Shown here in pieces: positions 1,346 to 64,000 of a stretch of 64,000 nt of DNA (position 1 is the first letter of the stretch; each line of letters starts with the position of its first letter). The position numbers and the translations under genes are program-made. Source of the DNA: Lytechinus pictus (lineage: Eukaryota); contig NC_087252.1 of the NCBI RefSeq assembly GCF_037042905.1, positions 5,210,001 through 5,274,000 on the forward strand. The letters run 5' to 3'. Under the pieces are notes generated by a model. It was not told the DNA's origin. It searched no databases and saw nothing but the letters and a program-made list of their open reading frames with translations.

Positions 1346-1417
1346 GTCTCTGTGGTCTAGTGGTTAAGGCACCGGCGTTCAAAGCTGGGGGCCCGGGTTC
1401 GATTCCCGGCAGAGACA
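1346..1417 (+). tRNA. tRNA-like gene, anticodon TCA, short variable arm, Glu-like body
   Basis: Acceptor stem GTCTCTG/CAGAGAC, D stem GTCT/AGGC, anticodon stem CCGGC/GCTGG with loop GTTCAAA, T arm CCGGG-TTCGATT-CCCGG, discriminator A, then T6 at 1418-1423. Confidence 0.7.
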
Positions 1418-1755
1418 TTTTTTCGGCATCACCAATTTTTCCAAACAGGGTAGATAGCTCTGGGGAACCTTGATTTAAGCTACGCCTACCATTGTTCTCT
1501 TCATCAATTTCTTTCACACAATATTTAAATAAAAGAGTTGCCAAAGCTGTAGTACATGTATAACTTCACACATTTGTATACTTTCTCCCATACGTGTACT
1601 GTATCAAAGCAATAGCTTTGATCCAGCTGAGGCATGGCGGCTTGTCATTGTTCAAAACCCACCTTCACCCGACAAAGGAAATTACAATTGGTATGGTGTC
1701 GAAAATCTGTCTATCTGACGGTCAATCGGATCGGGGTCGCCCTAGCCACTAACCC

Positions 1756-1827
1756 GTCTCTGTGGTCTAGTGGTTAAGGCACCGGCGTTCAAAGCTGGGG
1801 GCCCGGGTTCGATTCCCGGCAGAGACA
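1756..1827 (+). tRNA. Second identical tRNA-like gene, anticodon TCA
   Basis: Exact copy of 1346-1417, also followed by T6. Confidence 0.7.
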
Positions 1828-13487: not shown

Positions 13488-13780
13488 TTTCGTTTTCGGA
13501 TTAACGAACCTTCGGAATTACGAACCGCATTTCGTTTTCGGACTAACGAACCTTCGGAATTACGAACCGCATTTCGTTTTCGGACTAACGAACCTTCGGA
13601 ATTACGAACCTCATTTCGTTTTCGGACTAACGAACCTTCGGAAATACGAACCTCATTTCGTTTTCGGACTAATGAACCTTCGGAAATACGAACCTTCGGA
13701 AATACGAACCTTCGGAATAACCGAACCTTCGGAATAACCGAACCTCCGGAATAACGAAGCTTCGGAATTACGAATGTATG
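13488..13780 (+). repeat. Tandem repeat of 16/42-bp units (TTCGGAATTACGAACC / TTTCGTTTTCGGACTAACGAACC)
   Basis: Directly visible. A longer paralogous array lies at 37995-38435. Confidence 0.9.
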
Positions 13781-15296: not shown

Positions 15297-15337
15297 GGCC
15301 TAAGCTTTCGATCCTAGCAGAATCTTCGTCGGAGGCA
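15297..15337 (-). ncRNA. Minimal hammerhead-ribozyme-like motif in Penelope pLTR (second copy ~19162-19201)
   Basis: Minus strand reads GCCT-CCGACGA-AGATTCTGCTAGGATC-GAAA-GCTT-AGGC. This gives stem I, a variant core, stem II, GAAA and palindromic AAGCTT. Confidence 0.6.
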
Positions 15338-16508
15338 AAATGACAAACATATAAAGTGGAACAACCATAATATAGACCACAAACAAGCTACAGCAACACT
15401 AGAAACAAGGAGACAAAAGGGGCATTAGTGAGTAGAGAAGACCAATCAGGTTAGTGAAGGGGATGAAAGAAAAGGAGTAGGCAGACACAAAGGGAAGTTA
15501 GTGTAAGTAAGGCCAAGAGGGATTAAGATAATGAGGCAGGCAACATCAAACAGGATCTGGAACAAAACAGTGATAGAGGGATGAATAACTAGAGAATTAG
15601 TGAGAGGTGGGTCAAACAGGTTACAAAGAAAGGCTTAATAAACTGGTGCATAAGAGTGGGGGGAAAAAAGAAGAAAAAGAATGGGGAACAACTGATAATG
15701 TGCAAAAGACATATAAGTATATATGATAAAGCATTAAACAAACTAAGAGAAGAAGGTAAGTGTAAATATGTATCTATAAGTGATATGTATATAAATATAT
15801 CAAAAAAAGAAATGTATATGAAAAAATATATATAAATATATACACATATGGTGTAACTGATATGGTAATCCGCTAGGTGTGACGGGAAAAAACATAAGAC
15901 TATATAGTAGGAAAGAAAAAAAATCTGTATATGTGAAAAAGAGGAAGCAAATTGCCTAAAAAGGTAAAAGCAAATATAGAAGAGAGGGGGTGTATTATGA
16001 AGAAACCATAGTATACATGTAAATAAGCAAATGTGGTGAATCTAAAAGAGGTGAGTGGAGAAAAAACAAATATATATATATATATATATAATAATTATTA
16101 TATCGCCTGAATAAGGAAGGAAAAATTGGAGCTGAGCTTGTATGAGATATGGGAGGAAAGTAGAGTAAGAAACTATAATGTAACTATTCAAAAGAGCTGA
16201 GGGGAAAAATTATATGTATATATAAATTGAAAGTGGATAGGAAAGAAAAATCAGTCGTTCCCCTCTTGGATGTTCAGGCCATGAGGTTGGGTGGTGCGAA
16301 GTCGTCTCATCCAGAGCTTCTCCCTGCTAGTACGGACTGAGTCAGGACGGGTACCTAAAGATTCGATGCCCTGTAGCATCATGTCAGTGATGGAGTGGTT
16401 GGGGAGGTTAAAATGGCGGCCAACTGGAGTGTCCAGCTTTGCTGTGTTGACGGTGGATCTGTGCCCGTAGAATCGTTTCTTGAGTGTGGTCTTGGTTTCC
16501 CCTATGTA

Positions 16509-18260
16509 CAGTGCGTCCCAAAAAAAACTATACACTTTTGAAATTGCTGCCAAATGAAAAATATAGCACTTTGGGGAAAAACACCTATATGTATGGAAGT
16601 CAATTAAGTCAACTCTCAAATGACACCAAAAAGTTAGAAAACTATTCATGCTTGAGCGAGCACTGCCCACTGAAACAAAGGGTATGAAAATTAGGGTGGG
16701 CTGGAATTAGCCTTCCAATTTATGTCAGTTTTTGAGAGGCAAATCCTTTGCAACTTGCAAAGTTAAGGGCGTTGTGATAAATTAATGATCAACCGTGACC
16801 AGTTTTGGTTGTTTAAGCAAATTTCATAAATTATTAAATTGAACTGTAATGCATGAGTGAACACAAATTACACTTTTTGGGCAGCATTTCAACTTTATCA
16901 TTTGGATCACAGCAATGTGTTCATGGGTGAGATAGGACTTAAGTGGGAGAAGTAGGTTGATGGAATAAGGGTCAACAGAACATTCAGCTCCCGCCCCCTT
17001 CCTCTTTACGGCACTCCCCTCCTGTTGAGAAATTGATGGCTATTGTCATGTACGCGTGAAGTCCAGAGCAGAATGTTGATTTAATGATAAATTCTGAATT
17101 GGGGCATCAACTTTTTCATATCAATCATTTAATCAAAAATTTATCAGTAAACCAACTCATTCAATGTGTAATGTGATCAATCAAACATTCAGGTTTTTTT
17201 TTTCAATAAATTATTTCATTAATCATCATAATCAGTAAATTTCTTGGTAATCATTCAATGAAAAAAAAATTACCATCAGCCACTGGTCACTTGGCAGTTA
17301 AACTTTGAATAGGCTACAATCCAGGAAGTGAGACAGAGAGAGAGGGGGACTGGGAAATGGAGGTGGACGGTACATATGACTTTAAATTTGTAAAAGGACA
17401 AAAAGAAGAGGAATGCCCTTTTAACCAGGTCTTAGCATATCTCGCCCTTTTGCTTGTAACAGGTACCATCACATTACTCTGACTCTCACGAACACACTTT
17501 TGAGGTCAACAAGATGAATATGCTACACTAAAATTACAATTCCTGTTCACTCATGCATTAAATTTTAATTTAGTAACTCATAAAATTTGCCTAAGAAACC
17601 AAAGTTATCTCATTCATTAATTTAGCTTAATACCCTTAGCTTTGCAAGTTCCAAAGGACTAACCACTAAAAAAAAAACGGTAAGGCTAATTCCTGCCCAG
17701 CCTAGTCGAGCTTAGTCTCTCAGGAGAGAAGTGGAGGGGGGGGGGGGGTAGAGATGGAGGGAGGGGTTGCTAAATGTTCTGTTGACCTTTATCCCATCAA
17801 CGTACTTCACCTACCTAAGTCATATTATCCCCTCATCTGACTCTTCTGACTCTCATGAACACATTGCTGAGATCCACATGATAAAGTCAAAATGCTGCAC
17901 TAAAAATTGCAATTCATGATCACTCATGCATTAAATTTCAATTTGATAACGCATTACATTTTCACAAACAACAAACTGATCACAACTGATCATTAATTCA
18001 CCAAATAACCCTCAACTTTGCAAGTACCAAACAAAAAGCCTGAAAGAAATTGGGAGGCTAATTCCAGCCCACCCTAATTTTCATACCCTTTGTTTCAGTG
18101 GGCAGTGCTCGCTCAAGCATAAATAGTTTTCCAAGTTTTTGGTGTCATTTAAAAGTTTACTTTATTGGCTTTCCATATATATAGGTCTCTTCCCCCAAAG
18201 TGATATATTTTTTATTTGGCAGCAATTTCAAAAGTGTATAGTTTTTTTTGGGACGCACTG
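16509..18260. mobile_element. Tc1/mariner-type non-autonomous element with long TIRs and TA TSD
   Basis: TA|CAGTGCGTCCCAAAAAAAACTATACAC...GGGACGCACTG|TA. TIRs exceed 200 bp. Removing the element restores VQYIGETK. Confidence 0.9.
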
Positions 18261-18545
18261 TATTGTACCCTACAAACTCTGCAAGTGATGAGATATACAA
18301 CATTAGTGGTAGTGCATGTGATGTTGCCCTTGATTTGGTGAGACAGGCTGGTAGAGTTGCTGGTGAAAGTATCGCCCTCGTGAAGGTGTATTTCACATAT
18401 GATGCACCTGTTGCTGGTGCATTTGAAGGTGCCATGCTGTATGGGAGAAGAATGGTTAGTGAGGGAGGGCACTTCAGCACGAACAATGAGGTCCCTGAGA
18501 TTCGGTGGGCGTCGGTATGCTAGAAGGGGAGTATCGGGAACGGCC

Positions 18546-37994: not shown

Positions 37995-38435
37995 TACGAA
38001 CCTTATTTCGTTTTTGGATTTACGAACCTTTGGATTAACGAACCTCTTTTCGTTTTCGGATTTACGAACCTTCGGATTAACGAACCTCATTTCGTTTTCG
38101 GACTAACGAACCTTCGGAATTACGAACCTCATTTCGTTTTCGGACTAACGAACCTTCGGAAATACGAACTTCATTTCGTTTTCGGACTAACGAACCTTCG
38201 GAATTACGAACCTTATTTCGTTTTCGGACTAATGAACCTTCGGAAATACGAACCTTCGGAATAACCGAACCTTCGGATTAACGAACCTTCGGAAATACGA
38301 ACCTCATTTCGTTTTCGGACTAACGAACCTTCGGAATTACGAACCTTATTTCGTTTTCGGACTAATGAACCTTCGGAAAAACGAACCTTCGGAATAACCG
38401 AACCTTCGGAATAACGAAGCTTCGGAATTACGAAT
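37995..38435 (+). repeat. Tandem repeat array paralogous to 13488-13780
   Basis: Same 16/42-bp units and same right flank. Confidence 0.9.
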
Positions 38436-44205: not shown

Positions 44206-45577
44206 GGTATTTAGAGGCGCTAAAAACAAAAAGTACCATAGCGCGTACAGTGTAGGAATAACAATTTAACATTTGCAATAATTACTACAATATTCAAGAT
44301 AAAAAGGGAAATTAATTATTGATGAAAAAGGTATGTCTTAAGGGAAGATTTGAAGCCAAGAACACAGGAAGCATTTCTTATTGAAAGAGGGATAGTATTC
44401 CAAGTCTTGGCAGCTGCTACAGCAAATTGTTTTTCGGCAGAGGAGAGTTTTGACAAGGGAATGCAAAGTCTGCATGTGTCAGTGATTGAACGAAGATTAC
44501 GAGAGGGTGTGTATAATTTGATGGTATTATTAAGATATTTAGGTGCTAGATGATTTAGAGTTTTGTATACATATAAACAGACTTTAAACTGAATACGTTG
44601 GAATAGAGGTAGCCAGTGGAGTTCCTTAAGTAGGGGTGTAGTGTGAGTTCGGGATCCAAAGCCAAAAATTAATCGAGCGGCACGATTCTGAATAACCTCA
44701 AGTTTTCTTCTATCTCTAGCTGACAAAACAGTATATAAACTATTACAGTAATCTAACCGAGAAAGAATAAGTGCTCGCACAGCATGGTGAGATGTCTTAA
44801 GATCAATGAATCTACGGATCCTCCACAAATTGCTGAGATTATATAATTACAATTACGGACAACCTGATTTACTTGAGCAGACAGTGTGAACATGTTATCA
44901 ATGCATACTCCAAGAACAGTAGTTTTAGTGGAGATGGGGATGCATTGACCATTAACATTAAGCTGAATATGTGATATTGATTGCAGATGGCGGGCAGAAG
45001 AACAGAGAGCTATGAATTCAGTTTTGCTATTATTCAGCTGGAGATAGTTAGATGACATCCACCTACTTATTTCTGAAATACAAAGAGAGGGTTTCTCAAG
45101 TGTTTTATTTATGTTATCAAAAGAGCGCGGGTCAAAGGAACAATATAGTTGTACATCATCTGCATAACAAATATACTGTAGACCATGTTTATTGATAATG
45201 TCAGAGATGGGAGTGATATACAAACTAAACAGAATCGGCCCGAGAACTGACCCTTGGGGTACCCCAAACTCAGTGACCCACGGGTCAGACAACTCTCCGG
45301 CTATGATTACCCTAGATGACCAACCAGTCAGGTAAGACTTAAACCATTTAAGAGCTAGACCAGATATGTGAAATCGAGATTTTAAGCGATTCAGTAGTAT
45401 GGTATGATCCACAGTGTCAAAAGCTGCACTTAGGTGCAATGAGACTAAGAAAATACACTTATGCTGATCAAAATATGACAGAACCTCATTCTGCAATTTC
45501 AAAAGGGCTGTCTCAGTGCTGAAATAGGATCTATATGCTGACTGCACTGGATCGTATATCATTTATCATTACCATTA
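44171..45577 (-). mobile_element. 5'-truncated L2-clade LINE (RT domain to 3' tail)
   Basis: QSAYR..STETALL, LSAAFDTVDH, GVPQGSVLGP, YADD, SRLDYCNSL, HTTPLLKELHWLP. Frameshift near 44825 and (TTA)n tail. TCATTTTC is repeated at both ends. Confidence 0.9.
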
Positions 45578-48083: not shown

Positions 48084-48261
48084 GGACAAAGTCGAGACCG
48101 AGTTATCGCAGTGAAGAGTAGAAAGTGACTAGTCATTTTACACAGAAGTACATGTATGTGCTAAGTAATATTGTCAAATTGTTCAAGTATTGAGTTGAAC
48201 TTTTATTGTTGCTTCTGACAGTTACCTTTGCATCATTTTATCCTGTTAACACTTTCTCAAC

Positions 48262-51200
48262 ATGGATCTTTCGAAGTTCATTGAGTTAGGAAAGGATTTT
48301 GGATTGCAGGGTGAGAAGTTGCTCACTTTTGCTCGTGAGGAACGGGATAAGGAACTTCATAGGTTAGAAGTCATTGCAGCTAGGGATGAGCGCCAAAAAG
48401 CTAGAGAAGAACAGCAAAAAGGTAGGGAAGAACAGCAAAGACTTGCTGAGGAGATAACTAAACAGAAACAGTTGGATCTCAATCTTGCTGAGTGTAGAAA
48501 GGAAAGTTATGAAGCACAAAGTTTTCAGAGCGCGTTACCTCGTATGCAAGCGTTTGACGCGAACTCTGATGATTTGGATGCATATATCGCGCGTTTTGAG
48601 AGACATGCGGCACTTAGTAAATGGCCAAAGGGAGTTTGGGCCCCGGCGTTAGGAAATCTTCTGACTGGTACTGCCTTAGAGTGTTATACCCGTTTGCCTT
48701 GCAATGAAGCAGAAGATTATGACGCGCTTAAACATGCTTTGTTGCAGCATTTTACTTTAACCGCAGAAGGCTTTCGAAAACGCTTTCGTGAAGCAAAGCA
48801 AAAGGATGGCGAGTCATTTTCTCAGTTCGCAGCTCGCATAACACATTATGCTAAGCGATGGGCTGAGCTTTCAGAATGTAATCGTTCTTTTGACGCGCTT
48901 TTGGACTTATGCATACAATAATAATTGCTAGCTTGCTGCTCTCGTGACTTAGTGATATTTGTCCGTGATCACATCCCACATGATGTGCAAGAGTTGGTCA
49001 AACATGCTGAGCGATACTTTGAAGTGCGCGGCATTAAAGATCAGAAATGCAGGCCTAAAGATAGGAACTCAGATGTTAAATGCCATACATGTGGTAAGTT
49101 AGGACATATTTCACCGAGGTGTCGAACAAGAAAGGATACTTCTAATAATTCCATTAAGAGTCACCCCAAACCATCTCCTCCAGGGAAGGGTAGACAAATT
49201 GGTGGAAGTTGTAAAGCAGGTGTTTGTACCGAGTCTGTAGATGAGGAATTGAATGCTTATAAAGCAGAAGCAATTCAGACTGTGAAACTCATGTGTGGGC
49301 ACGAGGTATTTGTCTTGAATAGTTCATATGATGAGTTAGGTTCAGATATGCCAACCTGCGATGGTGACGTTAATGGTAAGACTATAAGTGTCCTAAGAGA
49401 TACAGGATGTAATGCTGTAGTAGTACGCACTGGTCTTGTACCAAAATCGCAGATGACTGGTAAGTATCAGATGTGTTTGCTCATGGATCGTAGTATTCGG
49501 AGAATTCCTACTGCATTCATAGATGTAAGTACACCATACTTGTCAGGAAAAGTGAAGGCATTTTGTATGGATAACCCTCTTTATGATTTGATAATAGGAA
49601 ATGTTAAAGGGGCAAAGAGGCCAAAGTTCGGAGATAGTGTCGACGCAGAGACGCAGACAGGAGCAGATGAAGGCATCCTGGAGGATGGAGGCCACATCAA
49701 GGAGTTGGAAGAGGTAATAGGGGCTAGTGTAGAAACTAGAGAGATGAAGAGGAAGAAGGAGCAGCCTTGGAGAAAGCTGAAGACACCAGGTGGTATCGAG
49801 ATCTCGGCAACCTGAGACGAGATGCTGAGGGAACAGCAACGGGATACAACTTTGGATAAGGTAAAGAAACTAGCAGATAGTGGAACAAGTAAGTCTGTAG
49901 GTAGTGGGGGAGAAGTTTCTTACTTCTATGAGAACTCACTCTTATATCGATGTTACAGGTCACCACATGTGGAAAATGGTAAGGAGTTCAAGCAATTAGT
50001 AGTACCTAAGCCACTTCGTAAATCTGTTTTACATCTTGCACATGATATGCCTTTAGCTGGACATTTACAAACAAAGAAGACTTTGGATAGGGTAATGTCT
50101 CAATTGTATTGGCCAGGTATTCAGTCTGATGTGAAGAGGTATTGTGCATCATGTGATTCATGTCAGTGCACGACACCGAAGGGAAGAATAGGTAAGGTTC
50201 CATTAGTAACCCCTAAACTGATTGACACATGCTTTCGTCGCGTAGCGGTTGACTTAATTGGTCCGATTCAACCAATTACTGATAAGGGAAATCGCTACAT
50301 CTTAACACTTGTTGATCTGGCTACTCGCTATGCTGAAGCGATTACACTCCCTTCGATAGAAGCAGAGCGCGTAGCAGAAGGATTGATGGACGTATTTTCG
50401 AGACTTGGCTTTCGAAATGAGATGCTTTCAGATAATGGCACTCAGTTCACTGCAGGCGTCATGAAAGAAGCAGCGCGCTTGGTAGGAATTAGACAATTTT
50501 CTACCACGCCTTATCATCCTATGGCGAACGGCGCATGCGAGCGTTTCAACGGGACGCTCAAACAAATGCTCCGGTGCATGTGCCAAGAGAGACCCAAAGA
50601 CTGGGACCGATATCTACCCGCTTTGCTATTTTCATATCGGGAAGTACCGCATGAGAGTACTGGTCACTCACCTTTTGAGTTAATGTATGGTAGAGTAGTG
50701 AGAGGGCCTATGACAATACTTAGGGAACTATGGACAGAGGACATTCCTGAAGAAGAGGTAAAGACCACTTACCAATATGTCTTAGATCTTAAGGATAGAT
50801 TGGAATCTACTTGTGAGGTAGCTAGGAATGTACTTGAGAAATCATCTCTTAAAAGTGCTACTCTTGTTACCCACTAGCCCAAACAAATTTCAAATGCAAT
50901 GGCAGGGACCATTTGAAGTACTTGGACGTGTAGCTCAACACAACTACAAACTTCAGGTACGTGGTAACGAGAAAACTTATCATGCCAATTTGCTAAAGAG
51001 ATATGTAGAGAGATACAGTGGGGAATCAACACTTACGGAGGCTAACTCAGTCAGTGTGGTATCAGAACAAGTAAGTGATGATGAATCAGTATCTATCGAG
51101 TGTCCATCAGTAACTCAAACTGAAGGTATTGATGATGTACACATTAGTGATGAAACCGATGATGTGGAACGAGAACAGTTGGTAGGTTTGGTTAGTGATT

Positions 51201-52542
51201 TCGCTGATGTACTGACCGATGTGCCGGGCCATACTAACATTGGCCAACACAATGTTCAGGTAAAAACTAATGACCCAATTCGTTCTAGACCATATCCTGT
51301 TCCAGACCATATCCTGTTCCACAGAGTATGAAGGAGACTATAAGAGAAGTCAACAAGATGCTGGAGATGAAAGTATTAGAGCCTTCTACATCACCTTACG
51401 CATCACCAGTGGTTCTTGTTCCAAAGAAAGATGGCAAGGTAAGATTTTGTGTAGATTATCGCAAACTAAACACTGTGACAGTTATCGATAATGAACCAAT
51501 ACCCAACATTGAACAGATTATGTATGATATTGGAGAAGCCAGGTACTTTTCCAAAATAGATTTGTCTAAGGAATACTGGCAAATTCCAGTAAAAGAGACG
51601 GATCGTGAGAAGACTGCTTTTGTCACACCAGAAGGTCGGTATCAATTTCGAGTGTAACCTTTTGGCATGGTAAATGCTCCTGCAGTATTTACACGAATGA
51701 TGAGGAAATTGCTAACAGGTTTACCGCATGTCATTCACTACATCGATGATATATTGGTATAAAGTCAAACTTGGGAAGAGCGTGTGGGCGATCTTCGACG
51801 AGTCTTTCAACGATTACGAGAAGCTCATCTGACCGCCCGCCCGAGTAAGTGTCGACTTGGTTGTCGATCTGTAGAATTTCTAGGTCACATTGTAGAGAGA
51901 GGCGTAGTGAAACCGACACCAGAGAAGCTTGCTAAGGTCATGTCGATGTCGAGACCGACAACGAAGAAAGAGGTGAGATTTATCTTAGGTTTGGTAGGAT
52001 ATTATAGGAAATTCATTCCTAACATGTCTGTACTAGCCGCCCCTCTGACTGATCTGACGAAGAAAAGAAATCCAGAGAAGGTAAGATGGGAGGAAAAACA
52101 CGAGCATGCTTTCCGCACGCTGCAGGAAAGATTGTGTAAGTATCCGATCTTACAACTACCCGATTGTAACAAAGAGTATGTAGTCAGAACTGATGCATCA
52201 GACACTGGTATAGGAGCTGTCCTAATGCAAGAGCAAGATGGAGACTTGTTTCCAATAAACTATGCAAGTCGTAAGCTGCTAGATCGCGAACAGAGATATT
52301 CCGTGGTTGAGCGCGAATGCTTAGCTTTGGCATGGGCAGTTAGGAAGTTTTCCTACTACTTGTACAGAAAGAAATTCAAATACCAAACTGATCATTACCC
52401 GCTGGTTTATCTATCGAAAGCGCAACTAAAGAATCCAAGAGTTCTGCGTTGGGCGCTCGCTTTGGAAGCATATGACTACAGCGTTCAAGTAATAAAGGGA
52501 ACAGAGAACTTAGGTGCAGATTATTTAAGTAGATGTCCTTAA
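48262..52542 (+). pseudogene. gag-pol polyprotein with multiple stops and frameshifts
   Basis: CHTCGKLGHISPRC zinc knuckle, protease LRDTG, integrase HHCC plus VDL/SDNG/CER, RT YIDD at 51739-51750, RNase H TDAS..ERE..TDH..ADYLSR. Stops at 48919-48924, 49813, 51655 and 51760. Confidence 0.95.
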
Positions 52543-59270: not shown

Positions 59271-61718
59271 CATGGGCGGAAATCCCAGGGGGGACAGGGG
59301 GGACATGTCCCCCCTACTCAAAATAGTAGGGGGGACACAATATCAAATGTCCCCCCTACTATTTTTTGTCTTTTATGATGGTAAGAAATACATCATTCTA
59401 AATCGAAATATAACATGTATTTTGGGACGAGATGACCGTACTTTTGGGATGATAACCTTTTTTTGCTTGTCAAATTTTCCCGCCCCTTGTCCCCATAGGC
59501 GGATCCAGGGGGCCGAGGGCCCCCCCTCCCTAATGGCGGAGCAAAAAAAGAAAAAAACAGGGAAAGAAAGAAGGAAAAAGGAAAAGAGAGGAGAAAAGAA
59601 GAGAAGGACGACGAGTGCATAAAATAAGTTGAGGGGAAGACTTTGAAAAAAAAAAGAATCTTTCGTGCCACTATATAAAATTTTCGCTCCCTCTTCGCGC
59701 TCGCATTACCTGTTAGGTGATTTACATATCTTGTTCAATATGGAGCTCAAATATCAAGTTTGGATGTCAATATACAAAACATATTTCACCTCGGAAATCG
59801 ATCATTATTTTGTGTGATTTACAAATTGATTTTTTTTAAGTGCTCTGTAAAAATGTCAGTTTTATGGTCTGAATAATTTTATCAACATTTGCTGCTTGCG
59901 CTGCGTGCTCGCAAATTTTGATTTATCAGGTATCTGTTATTTTCGTGTATTCCATAAAGTTTTCAAAATATCCCTTTTCAGGTCTGATTGTCAAGATGTA
60001 TCAGCTAGCGCTGCACGCTGGCATTTTGATTGGCGAGTTATGTATGTTTCAATATTGATTATACAACAAACTACTTAAAATCCCCTTTTCATGATCAAAA
60101 ATTTTAGCTCGCGATTTGCGCTCGCATTAATGGTTAAAAGTATATCAACTGATGCATCCTATTCATAATTACAAAAGTTTTTATGCCATAATATCATCAG
60201 ATTTTGCGTCCTCATTAGGCATGAATAAATATGATATTAATTTAATAATTAAATTGTCCCTTTTGTTTCATCTCGCGCTTAGCAAGAGGAATAGGAAGAT
60301 AGTCATCATTTTCATGATATGTTGTAAGGATGTCCCGGTCCTATGTCAAAACTCAAAGTAATAATAATAAAAATTTTAGCTCTTTTTTTTAAGCGCGATC
60401 CATATCCACCAGACAATTTTCCTACAAAGTGCTTGAAATATAAAGCTGTAATTGACTCTTTTTTTCAGATCGGAATATCAAAGTTTCATGATTTTCATGA
60501 TTAAAGATGTATTTAGAATGCCTAGATTCTAGGTCTAAATGTGAAACACGCGCGCGCAGTTTATTCAAATACTCAACTTGTTCTCTATTTAAATCATTAT
60601 CCAGTTTCAGATCACAATATCAAAAAATTTTCTGCTCGCGCTTTGTGCTCGCGTTATTAATGTAGGAAGACCCTCTATTAATCATCCTTTTCATGTTTTA
60701 CAAAACATTGATTTTGATTGATTTATTTTATTTAAACACGGTAAAAAGCCCTCGATCAGCCTATGGCTGTTTACAAAACATGCAGAGTGGCCCATTATAG
60801 GTCTAAATCTCGATTTTTTTTTTGTTCTGCTCGCGCTTCGCGCTCCATCAATTGTTGAATTATATAGCTATCCTGTTCACGATTACAAAAATTGATTAAA
60901 ATTTTCCATTCTTTCTTTAGAAATTTTCATAATTTTTCAGCTCGCGCTTCGCGCTCGCATTTTTTGATTGTTGAAATATGTAACGCCTTCATGGCTAAGT
61001 GCAAGTAGTCCTTAACACTGAGGTACCTTTTCAACAGGTACCAGTTCAAAACGTAGGCCTATATAAAAGTTTTCTGCTCGCATTATTAATACTCATCCTT
61101 TCATGATTTACAAAACATGAATAGAGTGTCTCGTTCAGTAAATATTATAGGACTAAATCTCAAAATTTTCCGCTCGCGCTTCGCGCTCGCATTAATTGTC
61201 TACTTATATACCTATTCTGCTTGAGTTACAAAAAGTGCTTATAATTTTCATTGTTTAGGTGAAAATGTCAAAAAAAAAATCAGCTCGCGCTCGCATTATT
61301 TGATTGTTAAATGCTAACTGCACGCAGTCTTTAACAGGTATCTTTTCCATCAGTTCATTTCTGCTCGCGCTTTGCGTTCGTAGTAATTATTAAGTTGCAT
61401 ACACATTTTTTTTCAGGATAACAAACATTGCCCAGAATGTTCAAATTTTAGGAAAAGTACATAACATTTCCAAAATATTAGCTCGCGCTTCGCGCTCGCA
61501 TCATATAAATAAGGATTATGATATTATATATGAATTTATAAGAATAAAGCTAAGAAGTGACTAATGAGGACTACCCCTTCAAAGAAACAAACACAAATCA
61601 TCTTCGAGCTGCTGATCGGGGAAAATATGGCTGAAACAAATTTCCGCCCCCCCCCTATTGGCGAAGGCTGGATCCGCCCCTGTGTCCCCCTACCTTTTGG
61701 GAGAGATTTCCGCCCCTG
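59271..61718. mobile_element. hAT-like MITE (8 bp TSD) containing a nested related element at 59494-61682
   Basis: ATCATGCT|CATGGGCGGAAATC...GATTTCCGCCCCTG|ATCATGCT. The inner element CATAGGCGGATCCAG...CTGGATCCGCCCCTG carries many GCTCGCGCTTCGCGCTCGC motifs. Confidence 0.85.
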
Positions 61719-61937
61719 ATCATGCTCATAGGTTCCTTGAACCTCCTTTGTGTATCGTGCTTTGTATGTTGTAAGTTCCCTTTCTGTTCGTTTTTGCTTC
61801 AGTACCTCTTCTCATTCATGCACGTGACTGTTGTTTATCTGTTTCTGACCGGGACTTGTATTTCAGATTTCACTGTTCCTGCTATAGACATTTTAATGTC
61901 ATCTAAAAAAAAAATGCGTTTTCTGATTTTCTTTAAT

Positions 61938-64000
61938 ATGGCAAATTCGGTAGATACACCATTCAATACAATTAACGATGATGACTTTCTTGACTTGTTT
62001 AGACCACCGTTAGTAGAAAGTGAATCAAACATAAATCCCTATGTTACTTCCTTTGAAAATCATGTTACAGACAAATTTAATTCATCATCACAAGAGTTGA
62101 ATTATGATTTTGACACTGATAACCAATTTCCAGGTCCATGTTCTGAATACGTCACCCATAACCAGTTTAATAATGTTGTTAAGGAATTTGATAACTCCTC
62201 TTTTTCTCTTATACACCTTAATATTAGGAGCATTAACAAACACTTTGATGAATTACGGTTACTTTTAGATAATCCCACCATGCAAACATTTTCAGTAGTA
62301 GGTTTAACCGAAACATGGCTTTCTCATGATTCAAGCCTTCCATTCGCTCTCGATGGTTATGATCTTTTAGTTAACAACAGACAAAATAGGGTGGGTGGGG
62401 GCGTTGCATTATATGTTTCACAATCTTATGATTATGTAGTTCGAGACGAGCTTAACAGCATGTCTGATACAATTGAATCTCTTTTTATTGAAATTACTAT
62501 CCCTAACAGCAAAAACATTATCATAGGTGTTATATACAGGCCTCCGAGTTCGAATATCAAATCATTTCTAGATCATATCTCAGACTTGGTTAAAAATCAA
62601 ATTTTTGATAGTAAAAATTGCTTTATAATGGGCGATTTTAATATTGATTTATTAAAACAAAATAATGTTACACAAGATTGTTTGGAAATATTTTTATCCG
62701 CTTCTAACTTACCTTTAATATCTAAACCCACACGCGTAGTCAATGAATCCGCTTCGCTTATTGATAATATTTTCTGTAACGTTCTTCCCCCACCCGATTC
62801 CTTCATATTACTCTCTGATATCACTAATCACTTCCCTGTCTCGACTAATTTCTCTTTAAAAGACAGATTCAATAACATATATAGCCGTCCATTAAAACGT
62901 AGAATAACACACGAAAATATAGCTCGTCTGGGTGCTAGTTTAGACGATGTTGATTGGTCTTGTGTCTTTGATAATAATGACGTTAACTTGTCCTTTGAAA
63001 ACTTTATGAACATTTTTAATTTACACTTTGACACCCATATTCCAAAACTTAGAGATAAGACATTTAACTACAAAAAAAAATCACCGAAGCTCCCATGGAT
63101 TTCTAAATCGCTCTTGCGTTCGATAAATAGAAAGAATAATTTATATTATAAATACAAAATGAAACGCTCTGAGCAATCCAAACTTAAATATACTTGTTAC
63201 AAAAATACATTGACAAAAATTATACGTTTAGAAAAGAAAAGATACTTTACTAATCAGTTACAACTTTACAAGCGTGATATGCAAAATACATGGAAAGTTT
63301 TAAAACAAGCAATGGATATAACAAATAACAAATCTAATATTACAAAAATTAGATCTGGCGATGTTATTTTTGAAGATTCTCACCAAATTTGTAGTATCCT
63401 GAATAATCACTTTTCTTCAATTGGGGAAAATCTTGCAAGTAATATTCCTCCCGCAACAAAACACTTTTCTGAATTTTTAGGCCCACCAAATTCTAGTTCA
63501 ATGTTTCTCGCTCCAACTTATAATCAGGAGATAATTAATATTGTTTCTGATTTTAGTTCTAAAAAAAGTACAGGACATGATGACATCAATAATTTTCTTC
63601 TTAAGTGGGTAATATCGTCCATTGCGGATCCCCTAACTCATATATTCAATCTGTCACTTCTTAACGGCATTGTCCCCGAGAGCATGAAAATTGCAAAAGT
63701 CATTCCTTTGTTTAAAAGGGTGATAAATTAGATGTTAATAATTACCGCCCAATTTCTTTGTTATCTACTTTGTCGAAAATACTTGAAAAGATTATTTATA
63801 AAAGAACTGTAAATTTTTTCAAATCAAATAATATTTTTTCAAATTCGCAATTTGGATTTAGGGAAAAGCATAGCACCACACATGCATTATTGAGTTTCAT
63901 TGAAAAAGCGGCACATTCAATCGATAAATCTTCTCATTTAATTGGTTTGTTCCTGGACTTCTCCAAGGCCTTCGACACCATTAATCATGATATTTTACTT
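61938..64000 (+). mobile_element. CR1/L2-group LINE ORF2: APE endonuclease plus start of RT; frameshift near 63715; runs off the window
   Basis: HLNIRS, LTETWL, GGGVALYV, IYRPP, GDFNIDL, SLIDNIF and TNHFPV. After the shift: GD..NYRPISLL..SKILEK, QFGFR, FLDFSKAFDTINH. Confidence 0.92.

Follow-up and report, generated by a model that had tools for sequence, protein, structure and literature searches.

Animal non-LTR retrozymes are described as non-coding repeats whose tandem units of a few hundred bases occur both as short dispersed copies and as long arrays, with strong self-pairing; dependence on Penelope-like elements has been proposed for them, and their circles are closed by RtcB (PMC7229834; bioRxiv 10.64898/2026.07.22.740005). 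RtcB is reported to circularise retrozyme monomers in vitro (PMC7229834). For Penelope-like elements—non-autonomous forms such as MRC1/Chlamys, and the Naiad, Neptune and Hydra clades—the account in PMC8557442 gives an insertion anatomy of head-to-tail units, 5' truncation, 5' inversion, a tail of 30–40 bp and (TA)n targets, the Naiads being without a hammerhead. Initiation of reverse transcription at two internal sites has also been described (PMC11167929). Non-autonomous elements bearing tRNA sequences are known in other classes (PMC10886601, PMC6765202). The SINE-like hammerhead repeats of Schistosoma are tandem repeats with a Pol III promoter, whose multimers are processed to monomers by ribozyme cutting (PMC6765202), while Helenus TRIMs have LTRs, a PBS, a PPT and 4–5-bp TSDs, together with a tRNA-like sequence that inflates tRNA counts, predicted suppressors included (PMC10886601). 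In intron-containing pre-tRNAs, the source of tricRNAs, a 3-nt bulge at 37/38 and a strong proximal pair accompany the release of a circular intron; swapping that pair to G-C hardly alters the yield of tricRNA, and circle formation is the work of RtcB (PMC6614914).

The window analysed here is a stretch of 64,000 nucleotides from Lytechinus pictus, and it holds a repeat that has something in common with each of these systems. The repeat has the organisation of a non-LTR retrozyme but no hammerhead or other Rfam ribozyme; it carries a complete tRNA cloverleaf and terminator instead, and its circle is putative. Its insertions have the Penelope anatomy and, like Naiads, are without a hammerhead, but the tail is longer, at 42–60 bp, and a tRNA is carried. 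As in Schistosoma, a tandem repeat is combined with a Pol III promoter, but here no ribozyme was found and a full cloverleaf is masked by an antisense leader. Like Helenus TRIMs it is non-autonomous and inflates tRNA counts, but it has none of their LTRs, PBS, PPT or TSDs. The likeness to pre-tRNAs lies in a predicted composite cloverleaf with its bulge, proximal pair and circular intron; the exons, however, would come from two adjacent copies, the ‘intron’ would be the whole mobile unit, and the proximal pair would be G-C rather than C-G. A tRNA-derived SINE starts at its tRNA head and has a LINE-like tail and a TSD, whereas this tRNA is internal, at unit positions 236–307, and 5' ends are scattered; the original prediction was right to set aside a plain SINE head. 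The genome also has an ordinary SINE of tRNA origin, which is abundant, has a Glu-like D loop and keeps its tail conserved (L189, L190, L195, L199, L202 and others). No tRNA-bearing Penelope parasite or TSEN-processed retroelement came up in literature searches, and the family may be catalogued in Repbase, Dfam or GtRNAdb.

Anatomy of the insertion and its family

The two cloverleaves in the window belong to head-to-tail units of one Penelope-type insertion, a point that the original prediction missed, along with the antisense leader and a possible positive role for G32. The whole insertion (1219–1930) lies between two (TA)n runs and comprises an inverted 77-bp piece, a 5'-truncated unit and a full 410-bp unit, with the following features:

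1135–1218, no strand: (TA)n microsatellite, left target flank (sequence)
1219–1295, minus: 3' end and tail of the element in inverted orientation, a Penelope-type 5' inversion resembling a TIR (reverse complement of 1495–1571)
1291–1520, plus: 5'-truncated unit, unit positions 181–410 (repeat comparison)
1346–1417, plus: tRNA-like cloverleaf, copy 1; predicted 5' exon 1346–1382 (ARAGORN, RF00005)
1383–1792, plus: predicted 410-nt ‘intron’, running from base 38 in copy 1 to base 37 in copy 2, equal to one circularly permuted unit (from the fold)
1418–1423, plus: T6 run after the discriminator, Pol III terminator-like, which also pairs with the leader (sequence, fold)
1521–1930, plus: a complete 410-bp unit, which folds as a rod (z -8.5 when linear, -8.8 when circular)
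1521–1580, plus: ‘tail’, unit positions 1–60, with AATAAA at 1528–1533; second fixed 3' end of insertions
1539–1634, plus: three-way-junction hairpin domain, no ribozyme match (Rfam, fold)
1636–1755, plus: leader arm of the rod, imperfectly antisense to the trailer, 3' acceptor strand, T arm and D arm, with the anticodon arm skipped (fold)
1756–1827, plus: second tRNA-like cloverleaf (copy 2), with the same sequence as copy 1; 1793–1827 is the predicted 3' exon (ARAGORN, RF00005)
1828–1896, plus: trailer arm of the rod together with the T6 run; a second run, T5, near 1844–1848 (sequence, fold)
1905–1930, plus: principal fixed 3' end (...TTTCACACA), abutting (TA)n (insertion survey)
1932–1969, no strand: (TA)n microsatellite, right target flank (sequence)

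That the cloverleaves are carried by a mobile element, as first proposed from the window alone, is confirmed by 1,859 exact genomic matches to a 35-nt pattern from the D arm and anticodon stem (0 for the reversed pattern); a 23-nt motif of the unit outside the tRNA has 2,269 exact matches (control 0). Among 221 complete insertions, most are shorter than two units and the longest has 4.3. Their outer 3' ends (n=278) concentrate at two sites: 134 lie at unit positions 388–410, 106 of them TA-flanked, and 98 at 40–64, 84 of them TA-flanked. Together these sites account for 232 of the 278 ends, of which 190 are TA-flanked, compared to 4 of 46 elsewhere in the unit. Two fixed 3' sites fit the two-site internal initiation of reverse transcription outlined in PMC11167929. 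The 5' ends are scattered, with 6 of 188 at the tRNA +1 (unit 232–240) against a mean of 5.2 per 9 nt, and 3 of 188 at the predicted cut (unit 269–277), which is no excess. As there is no pile at tRNA +1, monomeric Pol III transcripts do not serve as the template. Of 33 head-to-tail runs, 9 (in 8 insertions) carry a rare allele common to all their units, which calls for a step from monomer to multimer. Long head-to-tail arrays of a 406-bp variant are also found, one on contig C2 (8866000–8883700, loci L050 and L108; from 8866155) with more than 40 units and ending in (TA)n, and another at L089 on contig C28. These arrays are the retroelement turned satellite, and their existence means that linear multimers could also serve as templates.

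Partial tandems, 5' truncation, 5' inversion, a tail and a (TA)n target are thus all found in the family, the anatomy described for Penelope-like elements (PMC8557442). The repeat is very probably a non-autonomous element of Penelope type, a 410-bp non-coding sequence for which a Penelope-like retrotransposon likely does the copying in trans. It is scarcely credible that the assembly is at fault, or that the repeat is a tRNA-capturing DNA transposon (MITE) whose terminal inverted repeats are 77 bp long. The window does contain 86-nt inverted arms at 1210–1295 and 1495–1580, but only 64 of the 221 complete insertions contain an inversion, the breakpoints vary and most copies have none, which rules out the MITE; the repeat unit and its junctions are present in independent raw reads, which speaks against an assembly artefact.

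No reverse transcriptase ORF joined to the unit was found in ORF scans that included TGA read-through (L001–L050, L118–L187) or by tblastn of 187 loci, and no 3'-end similarity to an autonomous Penelope-like family was found among the loci examined. Loci with 2–4-kb spacing were considered as an autonomous partner, but the spacing there is due to inserts of unrelated sequence or to duplication of a gene. Neptune- and Hydra-like fragments, the clade labels being a reading of motifs, adjoin some copies at (TA)n and have this target in common with the element. At L289 a Hydra-like Penelope element lies in a 6-kb inverted duplication with pieces of the element at both outer ends. Short TIR-bearing elements are inserted at the TTAA of unit 363–368 in three copies (L013:531–1265; L072; L117), two of them being of the same 590-bp family.

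Several other repeats occur in the window. A Penelope-like 3' end with a GIY-YIG end, a long T-rich UTR and a hammerhead-like core near 15330 is found at 15300–16517 (minus strand), and a piece matching it lies upstream, near 18272–18544. Remains of a Gypsy-type LTR retrotransposon, with stops and frameshifts, occupy 48250–52542 (plus strand); judged from translations, an integrase-like frame precedes the RT-like frames, an order as in Gmr1. LINE fragments (RT; endonuclease) are present at 44316–45562 (minus) and 61635–63731 (plus), and a 42-bp/16-bp tandem repeat family (TTCGGA..AACGAACC) is present at 13488–13774 and 37995–38434.

The cloverleaf and its anticodon

ARAGORN and Rfam RF00005 (60.9 bits, E 9.8e-11) agree on exactly two tRNA genes in the window (1346–1417 and 1756–1827, plus strand), both with anticodon TCA. 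The two are identical, at 72 nt each, and the 229-bp repeats that hold them differ at one site, outside the tRNA. Read from the sequence, 21 of 21 stem pairs are Watson-Crick or G-U, in a 7-bp acceptor, a 4-bp D, a 5-bp anticodon and a 5-bp T stem, with a variable loop of 4 nt. The anticodon loop of both is G32 U33 U34 C35 A36 A37 A38 (GUUCAAA), the A and B boxes are intact, and the discriminator A is followed directly by T6. In these respects—full pairing that includes the acceptor stem, UCA in the canonical register, boxes and terminator—the original prediction holds. The minimum-energy fold of the isolated 72-mer opens the D stem (z -2.0).

A tRNA-Sec has a long variable arm, a 9/4 acceptor-T fold, a 6-bp D stem and G73. 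The element tRNA has the UCA anticodon in common with it, but has a 7/5 fold, a 4-bp D stem, a 4-nt variable loop and discriminator A. These features rule out tRNA-Sec identity, as had been argued from the short variable loop and acceptor stem, and the best Rfam match is RF00005; ARAGORN's label ‘SeC’ is due to the anticodon. A resemblance of the D and T arms to tRNA-Glu had also been noted. The T arm is indeed identical to that of this genome's tRNA-Glu, which also has the same D loop, and overall identity is 48/72 to host Glu-TTC and 50/72 to Glu-CTC; yet host tRNA-Arg(CCT) is just as close (47–51/72), with much of the acceptor and D stem in common. Pattern searches of the genome did not recover a host tRNA-Arg(TCT), and a survey of host tRNAs by RF00005 returned a tRNA-Lys cluster only. 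In the tRNA-Lys cluster on contig C4, three copies are called Stop(TTA) by ARAGORN.

Across the family, UCA is read in over 95% of pattern-matching copies, in 100 of 100 copies among the matches listed (35-nt pattern, 1,859 matches) and in 133 of the 134 youngest copies. A genome search with a pattern that fixed U33–C35 and A37–A38, and at the loop left G32 free, gave 56 copies with another base at position 36 (34 UCC, 17 UCU and 5 UCG), of which 54 were examined. Divergence from the young consensus is 12.7% for UCU copies (20) and 6.5% for UCC copies (34; p 0.0012, 248 distinct copies), and 1.7% for unbiased UCA copies (68). UCU is linked to 318C (12/20 copies vs 0/40 older UCA copies) and also to 327G, 216T and 359T, while UCC is linked to 224T (18/34 vs 1/36). 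Base 36 is T in 7 of the 9 copies that are more than 12% diverged and were not chosen for their anticodon. From their divergence and linked alleles, the UCU and UCC copies were source lineages, the oldest being UCU (Arg), with few very old UCA copies sampled. In a weakly supported tree built from 86 copies, with only two starred branches, copies group by anticodon: the label changes 20 times, against 37.3 when shuffled.

G32 is kept in 176/181 UCA, 32/34 UCC and 18/20 UCU copies. U33A, which gives the palindromic GAUC, is known from 19 copies, spread over 13 loci and several backgrounds; in three arrays all units have it. U33C is seen in 9 copies, mostly in single units. Position 34 has two variants only, and GUAC, which is equally palindromic, is present in one copy only.

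Decoding tRNAs have a pyrimidine at position 32 and an invariant U33. The element tRNA has the cloverleaf, core bases and terminator of a decoding tRNA, but has neither the pyrimidine 32/U33 signature nor a conserved anticodon. The evidence for selection on UCA itself is negative, and there is good reason for confidence that the tRNA is not selected for decoding. The headline proposal of an opal suppressor is not supported here, since base 36 differs between source lineages (UCU, UCC, UCA) and the loss of U33 is inherited by whole arrays; the element tRNA is probably not a suppressor. The accompanying argument that G32 speaks against decoding is supported. A comparison of copies had been proposed as the check, and it gave a divided answer: stem-preserving change was seen and over 95% of pattern-matching copies read UCA, but the anticodon varies among subfamilies.

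The evidence for selection on the shape of the cloverleaf is moderate. Relative to unit-specific changes, those common to all units of an insertion, i.e. inherited from the template, are rarer in the tRNA (5/130) than outside (68/436; p 0.0007). Copy samples were partly chosen by tRNA patterns, the set found with the non-tRNA motif (104 copies, 69 sites) being free of that choice. For tRNA positions outside all search patterns the ratio is 2/70 against 67/391 elsewhere (p 0.004); in the least biased subset it is 4/14 against 38/86, which is not significant (p 0.59). Three of four inherited stem changes keep the pair, and T6 is kept in 163/181 UCA copies. Private substitution rates are alike in the tRNA and outside (0.91 vs 1.0–1.3 per 100). 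A single-copy relative at L053 (1493–1564, minus strand; contig C1, about 40798450–40798520) is a 72-nt cloverleaf identical to the element tRNA at 56/72 positions. Its seven differing stem bases are all pair-keeping, two pairs having changed on both sides, while five of its seven loop bases differ (TACCTCA, with U32/C35). It is without the T run and the unit flanks, and is called Arg(CCT) by ARAGORN.

The RNA rod and a possible splicing route

The 410-nt unit folds as a long rod of short helices, with a z of -8.5 as a linear and -8.8 as a circular molecule; the circular rod of the opposite strand reaches only -3.8. The leader pairs with the D arm, the T arm, the 3' acceptor strand and the trailer and leaves out the anticodon arm, so that the tRNA is masked except for this arm. 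When the cloverleaf is forced within the full unit the energy is -118.0 kcal/mol, against -140.9 for the rod, a cost of 23 kcal/mol. Covariation in the rod is slight (177/318 from T-A to G-C in three copies, 139/353 in three), and rod pairs are broken by 24/73 inherited compared to 256/566 unit-specific changes. No ribozyme was found in an Rfam scan of 1219–1940 down to E 10, and manual inspection of the unit for CUGANGA/GAAA hammerhead cores gave partial matches only. The unit works like an animal retrozyme but shows no hammerhead in these scans.

The family is represented in three RNA-seq runs (organism B; 150-nt paired) by 1,022–1,948 of 12.9 million reads each, equally in both orientations, and 36–64% of these run into unrelated flanks. 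No pile of read ends was seen over the unit in the three runs. No CCA loose end or A58 mismatch was seen among the best 40 rows, the library type being one that cannot reveal mature tRNA. In run X22, 218 reads cross one unit end-to-start junction; they fit a circle or a tandem transcript alike, because tandem DNA gives the same reads. In that run only, one diverged variant makes up about 45% of reads, with many junction reads. It has about 16 changes, one of which, a wobble, is in the tRNA (linkage inferred from matching frequencies), and includes a compensatory G-C to A-U change in the rod at unit 117/375. Among the best 40 of 153 unit variant rows the tRNA holds one, the wobble-keeping A68G; a narrower view shows further tRNA changes at low share, largely C>T and G>A. 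A 72-nt contig in run X1 that matches the tRNA bounds exactly was set aside, as a contig of this length also results from a variant bubble.

The likely function of the tRNA shape is in RNA processing and not in decoding. For circularisation of the unit by the host enzymes TSEN and RtcB there is a real, if less than even, chance. In this scheme Pol III would start at tRNA +1, sometimes read through the first T6 and stop after the next copy. Folding predicts that in the read-through RNA copy 1 contributes its 5' half and copy 2 its 3' half to a joint pairing, and that the remainder folds into the rod. The anticodon arms would then cross-pair to give a bulge-helix-bulge-like site (G32:C35', C35:G32', 3-nt bulges N36-A37/A38), where TSEN would cut after position 37. 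RtcB would close the 410-nt circle, replacing the retrozyme hammerhead, and a Penelope-type reverse transcriptase would prime at a (TA)n nick and roll round it, the 72-nt UCA tRNA-like RNA being a by-product. In the composite, the possible partner of G32 is C35 in the following copy; this pair would lie three bases ahead of the 37/38 cut, which is the place of the proximal pair that TSEN needs.

The dimer RNA that was folded (1346–1833) begins at tRNA +1 in copy 1 and ends with the T run that follows copy 2. Its cross-copy acceptor stem has a predicted P of about 1.0 and the local acceptor stems 0.0, with the D arm of copy 1 at 0.6, the T arm of copy 2 at 0.95 and a rod in between; the cross-copy stem follows partly by construction, because any rod read as a dimer gives it. 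Compared with the minimum-energy fold, the full composite cloverleaf would cost only 2.8 kcal/mol and the forced bulge-helix-bulge form 7.8 kcal/mol, the inner two pairs of the latter being U-U. Cross-copy anticodon stems have a predicted P of 0.04 and G32:C35' of 0.0, local anticodon hairpins dominating the ensemble. The splicing fold is not favoured at equilibrium in these calculations. With the upstream leader in the RNA both tRNA copies would stay masked, so that for splicing to work transcription would have to begin at +1 and pass through both the T6 and a T5.

The splicing model would account for G32 and the freedom of base 36, for the absence of a ribozyme and for those runs whose units all have a rare allele. 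Base 36 is a bulge base in this model, and it varies by subfamily while G32 is kept. The palindromic U33A that fills whole arrays and the rarity of inherited changes in the tRNA also count for the model. Against it count the single copy of GUAC, the non-significant least biased test, the equal private substitution rates, the absence of an excess of 5' ends at the predicted cut and of piled read ends, and the long arrays as a source of linear templates. L053, judged by its U32/C35 loop, does not fit the G32:C35 motif. The complete reading is a ribozyme-free retrozyme: the parasite would be a tRNA intron built by two copies, released as a rod circle by TSEN and RtcB and rolled by a Penelope reverse transcriptase, with the stop anticodon arising by drift of a bulge base and a UCA tRNA shed at each round. 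It is put forward tentatively, the chances leaning against it as a whole.

Rival readings and implications

A tRNA mimic acting as promoter or processing signal had been offered as the alternative to a suppressor, and this is close to the reading favoured here. In a rival and rather doubtful reading, what preserves the tRNA is its use as an internal Pol III promoter, perhaps with an RNase P/Z signal, for read-through multimers that are copied in linear form by a Penelope reverse transcriptase, the anticodon loop being unconstrained. The intact A and B boxes and the free base 36 agree with this, long arrays could supply the templates, and precedents are described in the Pol III tandem repeats of Schistosoma (PMC6765202) and in the tRNA-like LTR promoters of Helenus TRIMs, where predicted suppressor tRNAs are TE copies (PMC10886601). 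However, the boxes suffice for a promoter, which leaves 21 of 21 stem pairs unneeded, the T6 run of most UCA copies follows the discriminator, no peak of 5' ends is seen at +1, and rare alleles in all units are hard to obtain by linear copying alone. It is unlikely that the tRNA is a passenger, an old tRNA-Arg/Glu-derived piece caught in the rod and conserved only through leader pairing and the youth of the family. The equal private substitution rates, the non-significant least biased test and a monomer that does not favour the cloverleaf all fit this idea; against them stand an antisense leader in which drift has produced many bulges and removed the anticodon arm, although all stems persist in the sense copy, the pair-keeping stem differences of L053, with two pairs changed on both sides, and the dominant X22 variant, with only a wobble in the tRNA.

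Very unlikely is a working UGA-reading tRNA, encoded for the element itself or an autonomous partner, e.g. for UGA read-through in a Penelope ORF. The near-uniform UCA of listed and youngest copies, the complete cloverleaf with its own terminator and A36-A37-A38 would suit such a role, and Naiad elements with in-frame UGA are described in clams and spiders, though via SECIS (PMC8557442). But the UCU and UCC subfamilies were mobile; G32, the inherited U33A and the lack of Sec or Ser features speak against decoding; and a trans-acting tRNA is a shared good, not kept by selection on each copy. No in-frame UGA pattern was found in the Penelope fragments examined, which are partial and include no Naiad, one TGA being present in the L181 RT.

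Around two thousand loci in this genome will be annotated as selenocysteine or suppressor tRNA genes, and these should be masked. If the splicing reading is true, retrozyme-like elements would have a second way to make circles, by borrowing the tRNA-splicing machinery. It would also offer an answer to how Penelope parasites without a hammerhead produce tandem insertions, and the family would provide a natural model of very large tRNA introns.
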